IMG/VR virus record: IMGVR_UViG_3300047550_004845 | Coordinates: 7,906-71,905 of that record | Reading direction: 5' to 3' (one strand) | From: a virus | Length of the DNA: 64,000 nucleotides | In this document: positions 7,879-9,283 of the stretch, one piece after another | Layout of the letters: each line of letters begins with the position of its first letter | Numbering within the stretch: the stretch's first letter is position 1 | Translations under genes and position numbers: made by a program | The notes under the pieces: generated by a model | Told to the model about the DNA's origin: nothing | Databases searched by the model: none | Seen by the model: only the letters and a program-made list of their open reading frames with translations

Positions 7879-7985
7879 CTCCCTTGCTCTCGCGATGCCT
7901 ACTAGGCAAGGGGGAAGTAGGCTTGTGCCGGGATGCCATTTGGAGGTTTGCTTAGTCCCGGAGCGAGAAAAATGCAAACCTCCAA
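7879..7985 (+). ncRNA. Structured non-coding module A (double pseudoknot candidate)
   Basis: Perfect 12-bp stem 7940-7951/7974-7985. Its loop carries TCCCGG and GCGAGA, complementary to CCGGGA (7928-7933) and TCTCGC (7888-7893). 5' stem 7879-7887/7906-7914. Confidence 0.6.
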
Positions 7986-7993
7986 TCGCCACT

Positions 7994-8157
7994 CTGCACC
8001 GGAAAGATAAACCGGAATGCCGGTGGCTCTAACCCCACACTGCTCAGTCGGTGTGGTGCAGCCAACACCCCAGGTCCGGCACGATCGGGTAGCCGTTGGG
8101 TGCTCTGGTCTGCGTTCTAAGTCCTGAGTAATCAGGCCGGGGGGATGGCCTCCCCCG
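7994..8157 (+). ncRNA. Structured non-coding module B (possibly related to the cyanophage manA RNA motif)
   Basis: Stems CTGCACC/GGTGCAG, CACCC/GGGTG, CCTGA-GTAA-TCAGG, CGGGGGG/TCCCCCG; pseudoknot TGCCGG (8018)/CCGGCA (8076). Family assignment is from memory only. Confidence 0.55.
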
Positions 8158-8161
8158 ACAT

Positions 8162-8239
8162 GGGAAACGGATGGAAGCCTTGCGAGGCGAGATTTGATCA
8201 CCTCGTCGAAGCAATCAGGTTCGATTCCTGGGTTTCTCC
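8162..8239 (+). ncRNA. tRNA-like RNA with acceptor stem and T-arm but non-canonical D and anticodon arms
   Basis: GGGAAAC/GTTTCTC acceptor, TCAGG-TTCGATT-CCTGG T-arm, central GGCGAG/CTCGTC stem with 10-nt loop. Confidence 0.6.
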
Positions 8240-8322
8240 TCTCCTTCATTAGAAGGAGGGTGCGGTCGGCAATCACCGTCCCGGACGCCCATGTGGCGCC
8301 CCCGAAGGAGAACGAGGCAATC

Positions 8323-8405
8323 GCAGGTAGTGCAGCCCTCTCCCCGGTCACGGCTGGGTGATGGTAAAGAGGATTCCAGGTGCACTTGATCCGGGTCCCA
8401 CCTGC
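8323..8405 (+). ncRNA. Structured non-coding module (multi-branch with pseudoknot)
   Basis: GCAGGT/ACCTGC closing stem, CCTCT/AGAGG, CCCGG/CTGGG, AGTGCA (8329)/TGCACT (8381). Confidence 0.5.
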
Positions 8406-8410
8406 CACAA

Positions 8411-8482
8411 TGGTGTGTAGCACAATTGGTAGTGTTGCTGGAGCTTATTCGGCGGTTGCAGGTTCGAGTCCTGCCACACCAC
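8411..8482 (+). tRNA. Atypical tRNA, nominal anticodon CTT (Lys) with A32/G33
   Basis: TGGTGTG/CACACCA acceptor, GCAC/GTGT D-stem, GCTGG-AGCTTAT-TCGGC anticodon arm, GCAGG-TTCGAGT-CCTGC T-arm. Confidence 0.7.
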
Positions 8483-8486
8483 ACTC

Positions 8487-8802
8487 GAAGGTAAGGAAAG
8501 CAAAAGGAGCATGGGACCCAGTGACACGTGTGGAACGCATGGGGGGATACCGCACCTGCCTTCTCTCTCCGTTCTAGACCCCGGAGTCGTATGGAAAACG
8601 TCGTTAAGTTCCCGCCACGGCCACGCATACAGGCGTTAAAGTGTGGACTCGCAGATTGCTCCTAGCTCACACCAGCTGTGGGCCACCGACAAGGTGACCA
8701 ATCCCGGACTCTGGCCGTATGGGGAGCAACTAGTGAGCAAAGCCCCCACCTCTGTGCGTCCTTGAGGCGTCTCACGTGTTAAACACCTTCGGGTGATGGG
8801 GC
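8487..8802 (+). ncRNA. Run of four further structured non-coding modules
   Basis: Closing stems GAAGGTA/TGCCTTC (8487-8563), GAGTC/GACTC (8584-8650), TTGCTCC/GGAGCAA plus GCTCAC/GTGAGC (8656-8738), GCCCC/GGGGC with a cTTCGg hairpin (8742-8802). Confidence 0.5.
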
Positions 8803-8806
8803 ATTC

Positions 8807-8880
8807 GCCACCTTAGTTCAGCTGGATAGAACAACGGTTTCCTAAACCGTAGGTCGTGGGTTCGAGTCCCACAGGGGGTG
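8807..8880 (+). tRNA. tRNA-Arg(CCT)
   Basis: ACGGT-TTCCTAA-ACCGT anticodon arm, canonical D and T arms, one A-G mismatch in the acceptor. Confidence 0.9.
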
Positions 8881-8896
8881 TCGTCTTCGGACGCAA

Positions 8897-8968
8897 CGGG
8901 GTGTAGCGCAGTGGTAGCGCACCTGTTTTGGGAACAGGATGTCGGAGGTTCGATCCCTCTCACCCCGA
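8897..8968 (+). tRNA. tRNA-Pro(TGG)
   Basis: CGGGGTG/CACCCCG acceptor, CCTGT-TTTGGGA-ACAGG. Confidence 0.95.
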
Positions 8969-8970
8969 TT

Positions 8971-9130
8971 GGCGTTTGGTACTTTCGGTACCGCGCCGGG
9001 GACACCAAGGAACGGTGTCTTAAACGAAGGGTCCCCTAGGCCACATCGTAGAGAAGCGAAACCGGTTTCAGCATAAGTTGCCAGGTCGCTTACCGTAGGT
9101 GGATACCCTCGCCCAGGCGCGAAAGCGCCT
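8971..9130 (+). ncRNA. Structured non-coding module between tRNA-Pro and tRNA-Arg
   Basis: GGTAC-TTTCG-GTACC, GGGGAC/GTCCCC, GACACC/GGTGTC, AAGCGA/TCGCTT, AGGCGC-GAAA-GCGCCT. Confidence 0.45.
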
Positions 9131-9133
9131 CAT

Positions 9134-9208
9134 GCCCTCGTAACTCAGCCTGGATAGAGTATCCGACTTCTAATCGGTCAGTCGTAGGTTCAAATCCTAC
9201 CGAGGGTG
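9134..9208 (+). tRNA. tRNA-Arg(TCT)
   Basis: GCCCTCG/CGAGGGT acceptor, loop CTTCTAA, GTAGG-TTCAAAT-CCTAC. Confidence 0.93.
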
Positions 9209-9211
9209 CTT

Positions 9212-9283
9212 GCCTCTGTAGCATAATGGTAATGCAGCGCTTTTGTAACGCGAAGATTGCTGGTTCGAGTCCAGTCGGGGGCT
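9212..9283 (+). tRNA. tRNA-Thr(TGT)
   Basis: GCCTCTG/CGGGGGC acceptor, loop TTTGTAA; anticodon stem has G27-A43 and T31-C39 mismatches. Confidence 0.85.

Follow-up and report, generated by a model that had tools for sequence, protein, structure and literature searches.

Arrays of tRNA genes in phages are usually read as a codon-usage supplement or as a replacement of host tRNAs. The locus described here raises the question of what such an array encodes when most of it is not tRNA. It lies in a 64,000-nucleotide (nt) stretch of viral DNA, the window (positions 7,906 to 71,905 of the 71.9 kb IMG/VR record IMGVR_UViG_3300047550_004845), of which 7400-9800 was read directly. Coordinates are window positions throughout unless a record or locus is named. 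The segment 7833-9283, here called the island, runs from the end of an open reading frame (ORF) on the hli side (7832) to tRNA-Thr (9212-9283). Besides five tRNAs and a single tRNA mimic it has at least 10 non-tRNA blocks, which are found again in the tRNA arrays of related uncultured cyanomyoviruses. The non-tRNA remainder amounts to about 1,080 bases in three gaps (7833-8410, 8483-8805 and 8969-9133). The best explanation, to which a probability of about 65% is given, is that the source is a T4-like freshwater cyanophage, that the island is part of its tRNA operon, and that the gaps encode independently folding, conserved modules (A, B1, B2, C2, D, D2, E, F, G and H) which would be co-transcribed with the tRNAs and released by tRNA processing.

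An earlier note, made from the letters of this DNA, had seen no credible protein gene between hli and tRNA-Thr, and the island is indeed non-coding, with no supported protein gene. Its longest ORFs are short (65 amino acids (aa) on the + strand, 173 and 137 aa on the - strand), and neither the four ORFs compared with Pfam nor the three compared with PHROGs gave a match. Substitutions in module E are not spaced in threes, which argues for a non-coding sequence. A sigma-70-like promoter or an intrinsic terminator was not found on the + strand within 7833-9283.

Conserved helices in the modules

Fold z-scores of single sequences against dinucleotide shuffles failed to separate the modules from the shuffles and were dropped as evidence; since energy does not separate the two, the case has to be comparative. 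Related arrays were collected by anchoring on the downstream ORF 9369-9785 (17 viral loci and 37 metagenome loci), by motif scans, and from one whole related record (G001). In the resulting alignments the helices of A, H, B1 and the G hairpin are kept through compensatory changes. Feature and helix coordinates are shown in Table 1.

Module A is read as a two-domain RNA with two pseudoknots. Nine sequences were aligned, and a model (R1) was built from the two nested helices. It finds 11 full copies including the window (88-137 bits; 57 sources) and seven weaker or partial matches that cover the 3' domain only (18.7-28.2 bits); the window stretch 7879-7986, which belongs to the training set, scores 124 bits. 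Over 14 distinct sequences 95.8% of the cells pair, against 27-53% in slid controls, and double changes occur at 15 of the 29 pairs. None of 500 shuffles scored as high. Helix Pd lies outside the R1 model, yet every cell of it pairs (100%) in all 14 distinct sequences, with the series GC, GU, AU at one pair and CG, GC, AU, UA at the next. Pb is almost invariant, and covariation neither supports nor refutes it. A module A family was defined in this analysis by Pa, Pc and the pseudoknots Pb and Pd, all of which are present at 7879-7986. Among the loop complementarities that had been taken to imply pseudoknots, Pd covaries, but GCGAGA/UCUCGC (7888) has no partner in the relatives. A scan with an exact 26-base string from A returned no matches.

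The module H alignment was made with MAFFT from 13 distinct sequences, including those of the cultured phages S-CREM1 and DSL-LC03. It holds four helices, in which 98.2% of cells pair, against 37-51% in slid controls, and seven of 17 pairs show double changes; no shuffle of 500 was as high. A covariance model (R2) built from this alignment finds 29 copies, 21 of them distinct, at 71-137 bits (60 sources). In the R2 alignment of the 21 distinct sequences 99.7% of cells pair and double changes occur at 11 of 17 pairs (55 cells), again with 0/500 shuffles as high and with slid controls at 34-48%, the alignment in this case being fitted to the structure. On window 8998-9114, part of the training set, R2 gives 136.1 bits and all 17 pairs form. 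P1 (GGG/CCC) never varies, so that covariation gives no test of it. Nearly invariant are the P2 loop of 7 nt, the strands at the junction and the internal loop, and H as a whole has about 45 invariant unpaired bases. P5 is flanked on both sides by a conserved hexamer; some copies of H lack it and others have a hairpin of 16-86 nt there, as is usual for peripheral stems of functional RNAs. The window copy has each feature by which the H family was defined in this analysis, namely P1-P4, the invariant loop, junction and repeated internal-loop bases, and the optional P5. An RNAalifold fold of the first H alignment showed little covariation (5/21 pairs) and was replaced by the helices that the compensatory changes indicate. 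Copies of H extended to about 160 nt, with a P5 of about 70-86 nt, occur at L018:594-755, L045:258-419 and L068:1630-1788 (minus strand), and in L018 and L045 B1 stands directly 5' of H. The 3' flanking hairpin of H carries UUCG- or GAAA-type loops in relatives.

For B1, 96% of cells pair over 10 distinct sequences, five of 10 pairs show double changes, most of them supplied by a single sequence, and 0/500 shuffles were as high. The hairpin of G pairs in 100% of cells over 11 distinct sequences, with double changes at two of four pairs and an invariant closing stem. A degenerate G pattern matched 34 stretches, of which 14 were taken as true copies; the other 20, judged to be chance matches in unrelated AT-rich DNA, were left out. 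In the window and in L051 G has an extra hairpin before its 3' strand (UUCG in the window). The G-U pairs in P2 of H, in Pd and Pc of A and in the G hairpin fit the + strand, that of the tRNAs, only.

The closing stems of D and D2 also appear to keep pairing through compensatory changes, read by eye on two and four sequences. In D, GCAGGU/ACCUGC becomes GUAGGA/UCCUAC (two double changes) in the sole homolog, L068. In the four distinct D2 sequences GAAGG/CCUUC is replaced by UGAGG/CCUCA and CGAGG/CCUCG, and the module measures about 60-118 nt across copies by eye. Within D2 a conserved AAGGAG is followed 3 nt on by AUG (8505-8513). A small ORF starting there (AUG 8511, with AAGGAG as a Shine-Dalgarno-like site) was considered and rejected, since the relatives' frames run by eye from about 6 to more than 20 codons.

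E, F and C2 are conserved in the sequences compared, and their structure is unproven. Most relatives match E at 91-93% identity, the L042/L072 pair at 79%; the predicted four-hairpin structure of E is compatible with the data and unsupported by them (seven distinct sequences, double changes at one of 19 pairs, 64/500 shuffles as high). A (CA)n expansion is seen in the last hairpin loop of E at L073:3669-3768 (minus strand). F has one homolog, L074 in record G001, at 93.6%, with the differences in predicted loops or compatible with G-U pairing. In C2, 92.6% of cells pair over eight distinct sequences and three of 12 pairs show double changes; 19/500 shuffles were as high, which makes the structural support weak. 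B2 has an identical stem and a near-identical loop in five distinct copies and gives no covariation to read. B3 is matched at 83% in L096, and its G6/C5 hairpin recurs in L085.

The earlier note had divided the stretch into eight self-contained modules and had proposed a test for covariation in homologs. Covariation is found for A, H, B1 and the G hairpin, and not at significant strength for E, F and C2. Six of the eight intervals agree with conserved units within a few bases: 7879-7985 with A, 8323-8405 with D, 8487-8563 with D2, 8656-8738 with F, 8742-8802 with G, and 8971-9130 with the H core and its two flanking hairpins. The remaining two do not. Interval 7994-8157 is a composite of B1, B2 (8035-8056), an unconserved stretch and the hairpins 8117-8157, while 8584-8650 is offset from the conserved E (8567-8646), its GAGUC/GACUC closing stem (8584/8646) not being kept in relatives. 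The UUCG and GNRA tetraloops noted before are present, in UUCG- and GNRA-type hairpins at 8883-8896, 8785-8796 and 9116-9131.

Conservation and movement among related arrays

BLAST comparison of the island with the related loci gave discrete conserved blocks with unconserved DNA between them. Identity to the relative L009 is 88.9% for A, 92.5% for E, 90.7% for G, and 86.3% and 96.2% for two parts of H, compared with 88-94.5% for the tRNAs, 77-78.5% for hli and 76.8% for the downstream ORF. By these identities the modules are better conserved than the neighbouring protein genes. The stretch 7833-7885 had no BLAST homolog among the related loci.

The order of the blocks varies. B1 lies 5' of A in L009 and 3' of A in the window. 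C2 abuts E in G001 and L069, and the two are 250 nt apart in the window, with D, a tRNA-like gene and D2 between them. A natural variant, a DNA metagenome contig of run X6, joins 8027 to 8401 and omits 373 bases, from B2 through D. Such comparisons show that the modules behave as cassettes, acquired, lost or relocated between related arrays. In 13 of 18 distinct contexts H has a tRNA at no more than 30 nt on each side; C2 directly follows a tRNA in two of eight contexts and D2 in two of six.

Compared with cultured phages, the whole island gave matches at its tRNAs only, and 7879-8160 gave none. H is present, unannotated, in S-CREM1 (10047-10126 of that record, between tRNA-Met and tRNA-Leu) and in DSL-LC03, beside annotated wcaG, manA and abiF. 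Among 185,579 species genomes the H core pattern was found in three contigs only, all dense phage-type tRNA arrays, and in none of the cyanobacterial genomes in that set. The three (L104, L105 and L106) come from metagenome-assembled genomes labelled Acidimicrobiaceae, Paceibacterota and Microbacteriaceae, one of them being near-identical to S-CREM1, and are probably phage contigs mis-binned into unrelated genomes.

Short motifs containing UUAA(A/G) occur in invariant unpaired parts of E (8602-8607 and 8634-8639), G (8779-8784) and H (9020-9025). Their recurrence may reflect chance or a common binding site.

Occurrence in RNA libraries

Part of the stretch is contained in 20 public runs, the DNA runs being labelled freshwater, aquatic or reservoir metagenomes; habitat labels of runs with a small share of sampled words were left out. 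Three of the runs, from two studies, are RNA libraries, and their assembled contigs were compared with the island. Run X11 holds a 283-nt contig (depth 61.5) identical to 8509-8748, with adapter letters directly at both sides, so that it starts 2 nt before the AUG of D2. Contigs of relatives in X19 match 8254-8327, 8546-8627 and 8598-8737 with 0-3 differences, the last then followed by adapter, and those in X20 match 8253-8327 (adapter before) and 8610-8703 with 2-3 differences. E is covered in all three runs. RNA-library contigs on hli, A, B, H or the downstream ORF were not found, which is not evidence of their absence. The sequences of C2 and of D2-E-F-G are thus present in RNA libraries, a finding of presence and not a proof of transcription.

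One RNA contig bridges D2 to G unbroken, and D2-E-F-G therefore look like one multi-domain piece and not like four RNAs. The proposal of the earlier note, one precursor processed into several small RNAs, gains indirect support from the lack of an internal promoter or terminator, from modules placed a few bases from tRNA ends in relatives, and from the RNA contigs.

Known families and nearest systems

Rfam 15 was scanned at gathering thresholds, and at E<=10 on the 2.9-kb region and four short sub-stretches. Only tRNAs were found in the window at gathering thresholds, and E<=10 gave noise only, so that no module matches a catalogued family. A tRNA (RF00005) was accepted where a cloverleaf reached 29 bits or more in the Rfam scan or was called by ARAGORN at default thresholds; this holds for the five annotated tRNAs only, the modules having no tRNA match at E<=10 and the tRNA mimic falling short. 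Neither manA (RF01745, at least 55.2 bits) at gathering score or E<=10 nor wcaG (RF01761, at least 42 bits, three hairpins and conserved linkers) was found in the window, and abiF (RF03085) had no match at E<=10 within 7700-10600. Positive controls scored 96-110 bits for manA (L012, L039 and L066) and 92.7 and 103.7 bits for wcaG (L066 and L067). A relationship of A to wcaG was ruled out by model score and architecture.

The tRNA cluster of phage T4 encodes stable non-tRNA RNAs, rnaC and rnaD (species 1 and 2), whose function is unknown and which mature together with the tRNAs. Like these, the modules are encoded within a phage tRNA cluster and on the tRNA strand. Likened to rnaC and rnaD by description only, they differ in being about ten, in belonging to several families and in having documented covariation. 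In tRNA-punctuated processing, as of mitochondrial transcripts or of MALAT1/mascRNA, tRNAs or tRNA-like folds cue the cuts that set the ends of neighbouring RNAs. The release mechanism proposed for the island, including its tRNA mimic at 8162-8239, would be of this type, although here it is read from gene layout alone.

The likeness to manA and wcaG drawn in the earlier note is apt, as relatives carry both motifs in such arrays: manA in those of L012, L039 and S-CREM1, wcaG in that of S-CREM1 and nearby in DSL-LC03. The text of Weinberg et al. 2010 (PMC2864571) describes both as cyanophage and marine motifs of unknown function and as riboswitch candidates. Like them, the modules are orphan RNAs of cyanomyoviruses with support from covariation, and S-CREM1 and relatives of the window have both motifs in arrays beside H. 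Unlike them, no island module scores against either model, and the architecture of A and H differs from the wcaG consensus of three hairpins with conserved linkers. For S-CREM1, the main text of the phage's description (PMC9964418) lists Rfam matches only (abiF, wcaG, manA and glnA). That cluster, in an estuarine cyanomyovirus, resembles the island in having a tRNA array interleaved with non-tRNA RNAs and a copy of H, which is unannotated in that text; the window differs in lacking the three annotated families abiF, wcaG and manA.

The island had been called a candidate for an undescribed system. Its kind, orphan folded RNAs in phage tRNA clusters, is already known from manA, wcaG and the T4 small RNAs, and its families are not in Rfam. 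Full-text literature searches gave no description of these modules. A 2023 study (PMC10690425) reports 8,495 unnamed candidate viral RNAs from IMG/VR, which are itemised in its supplements alone; these supplements and those of PMC9964418 may include some of the modules.

Interpretation

Under the preferred explanation the whole stretch would be transcribed together with the tRNAs. RNase P and a 3' endonuclease (RNase Z or E), acting respectively on the 5' and the 3' ends of tRNAs, would cut at the tRNAs and at the mimic and release four multi-domain pieces: A-B (to about 8161), C2-D (8240-8410), D2-E-F-G (8483-8805) and, together with its clamp hairpins, H (8969-9133). The released pieces may owe stability to their pseudoknots, GC-rich closing stems and tetraloop hairpins. 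A and H, with many invariant unpaired bases, would most likely act in trans, binding a protein or a small ligand in the infected cell. For G and B1, which adjoin a tRNA in most of their contexts, a role as leader and trailer in the maturation of that tRNA is possible instead.

Several observations weigh against this explanation. Single-sequence folding energies are unremarkable (z from -0.03 to -2.34), with only A and 8971-9130 at about -2.3. The alignments of A and H behind the largest pair counts were fitted to their models, and the sequences come from few related lineages, so that the shuffle controls make the counts look more significant than they are. Covariation in E, F and C2 falls short of significance, D and F have one homolog each, and 8063-8115, 8160-8255, 8373-8395 and 8525-8562 have no homolog among the related loci. 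The RNA-library contigs show presence and not RNA ends, strand or abundance, the libraries may contain DNA, and the adapter-flanked ends (8509, 8748, 8737 and 8253) differ from the predicted tRNA-processing sites.

The modules could instead all act in cis in tRNA maturation, as leaders, trailers, spacers against misfolding, determinants of RNase P, Z or E sites or blocks to exonucleases, with no independent existence after processing. This is considered unlikely, at a chance that is still appreciable. It agrees with the presence of every module only within tRNA arrays, with the many elements that are plain tetraloop hairpins, and with the position of G 3-5 nt before a tRNA in nine of 12 distinct contexts and of B1 0-3 nt after one in eight of 11, whichever the tRNA. 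The pseudoknots or multi-helix cores of A and H and their long invariant unpaired runs, however, exceed the needs of a spacer. A and B1 touch no tRNA in the window, D2-E-F-G form a 323-nt block between tRNAs, and most tRNA junctions in related arrays measure 0-20 nt and carry no such module. Another possibility is that the DNA between the tRNAs consists of decaying tRNA genes and recombination scars, its structure being inherited from tRNA stems. Related arrays have 18-24 tRNAs against five in the island, 8162-8239 is a degenerate tRNA, and several stretches are without homologs. Against decay, in no relative is a conserved module a tRNA or alignable to one, the modules match or surpass the tRNAs in identity, and the helices of A and H covary. 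Decay, refuted for A, B1, G and H, is left as an account of the tRNA mimic and of the unconserved spacers alone; for the island as a whole it is very improbable.

It is improbable that the modules are anti-defence decoys, mimicking parts of tRNAs or antitoxins against anticodon nucleases or abortive-infection toxins. The idea draws on the tRNA mimic, on the tRNA-Lys-like gene with its abnormal anticodon loop, on the abiF-type RNA in the similar array of S-CREM1, and on P2 of H, whose 5-bp stem and 7-nt loop have the geometry of an anticodon arm; but that loop lacks the U33 of true anticodon loops, abiF and the antitoxin RNA families give no match to any module, and no host defence partner was identified, none having been searched for. 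The probability is smallest for a role as cis-regulatory leaders (riboswitches) of downstream genes, as first proposed for manA and wcaG and rated for these as candidates in the text of Weinberg et al. 2010 (PMC2864571). H and A do look aptamer-like, in that their cores have several helices, their junction bases do not vary and a peripheral hairpin does, but the next downstream genes are tRNAs and not mRNAs, and neither a terminator nor a stem occluding a start site follows the modules.

About two thirds of the 1.45-kb array segment is not tRNA. Under the preferred explanation it would be conserved folded RNA of several families outside the catalogues, which in cyanophages of fresh and estuarine waters stays as similar as the tRNAs do, and sequences from it occur in environmental RNA libraries. 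The manA and wcaG RNAs, long unexplained, would gain new companions and, by suggestion, a common release via tRNA processing. For H, a motif backed by covariation, a cultured test system exists in S-CREM1, which infects Synechococcus CB0101, and in DSL-LC03. It is doubtful that at least one of H and A is a new functional RNA class, such as a ligand-sensing aptamer, a self-cleaving ribozyme that helps to cut the array or a decoy that captures a protein. If so, the tRNA operon would be a cyanophage launch pad for trans-acting RNAs that reprogram or disarm the host, and a decoy, aptamer or ribozyme among the modules would add a new layer to the control of cyanobacterial hosts by abundant aquatic viruses.

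Other features of the locus

Table 1. Features of the island and its flanks, with fold z-scores of the intervals scored.
Feature	Positions	Strand	Description	Fold z (interval)
hli	7495-7713		phrog_178	
Second short hli-like ORF	ends 7832			
Module A	7879-7986	+	Two-domain RNA, two pseudoknots (predicted)	-2.33 (7879-7985)
A, helix Pa	7881-7887/7906-7912	+		
A, helix Pb	7897-7903/7916-7922	+		
A, helix Pd	7928-7933/7956-7961	+		
A, helix Pc	7942-7950/7975-7983	+		
B1	7988-8027	+	40-nt hairpin-in-hairpin; outer GCCAC/GUGGC, inner CCGG/CCGG	
B2	8035-8056	+	6-bp hairpin, conserved 10-nt loop	
B3	8117-8157	+	Two GC-rich spacer hairpins	
Scored interval	7994-8157			-1.38
tRNA mimic	8162-8239	+	7-bp acceptor stem, canonical T-arm, aberrant D and anticodon region; read from sequence	
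C2	8261-8317	+	Conserved block, variable central hairpin	
Scored interval	8158-8322			-0.83
D	8323-8405	+	Closed multi-stem element	-0.17 (8323-8405)
tRNA-Lys(CUU)-like	8411-8482	+	ARAGORN; Rfam 42.1 bits, lowest among window tRNAs	
D2	8485-8563	+	Closing stem, conserved purine-rich 5' part, conserved 3' part, variable interior	-0.77 (8487-8563)
E	8567-8646	+	Highly conserved block, four predicted hairpins	-0.03 (8584-8650)
F	8656-8738	+	Closed three-hairpin element	-0.55 (8656-8738)
G	8742-8802	+	GCCCC/GGGGC closing stem, covarying 4-bp hairpin, two invariant single strands	-1.19 (8742-8802)
tRNA-Arg(CCU)	8806-8882	+	ARAGORN, Rfam	
UUCG spacer hairpin	8883-8896	+	Between tRNA-Arg(CCU) and tRNA-Pro(UGG)	
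tRNA-Pro(UGG)	8897-8968	+	ARAGORN, Rfam	
H 5' flanking hairpin	8971-8997	+	Predicted fold; recurs with a different loop in L105	
Module H core	8998-9114	+	P1-P4 plus variable P5 hairpin	-2.34 (8971-9130)
H, helix P1	8998-9000/9112-9114	+		
H, helix P2	9002-9006/9014-9018	+		
H, helix P3	9028-9032/9105-9109	+		
H, helix P4	9041-9044/9099-9102	+		
H 3' flanking GNRA hairpin	9116-9131	+	Predicted fold; kept in L039, L042, L024, L025, L051	
tRNA-Arg(UCU)	9134-9209	+	ARAGORN, Rfam	
tRNA-Thr(UGU)	9212-9283	+	ARAGORN, Rfam	
Downstream ORF	9369-9785		phrog_451	

The G+C content is 57-60% in the island and 46-50% downstream. Just 5' of hli lies a 295-aa ORF (6536-7423) with a signal-peptide-like start and no match among the PHROG families. 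ARAGORN and Rfam agree on the five tRNAs, which lie within the interval flagged by the earlier note.

The tRNA mimic is reported by ARAGORN only at 85% thresholds (8173-8239, with a 4-base anticodon), scores 14.3 bits (E 5.2) with the Rfam tRNA-Sec model and has no homolog among about 100 related loci. The anticodon loop of the tRNA-Lys(CUU)-like gene reads A-G-CUU-A-U and has G in place of the almost universal U33; a DNA contig from a relative spans 8401-8480 with three differences. A second odd tRNA-like type adjoins H in several arrays (L066:2925-2995, L009:2661-2740 and L018:756-847). It has a conserved D-arm-like start and a normal T-arm, and ARAGORN names one example a 92-nt tRNA-His(AUG).

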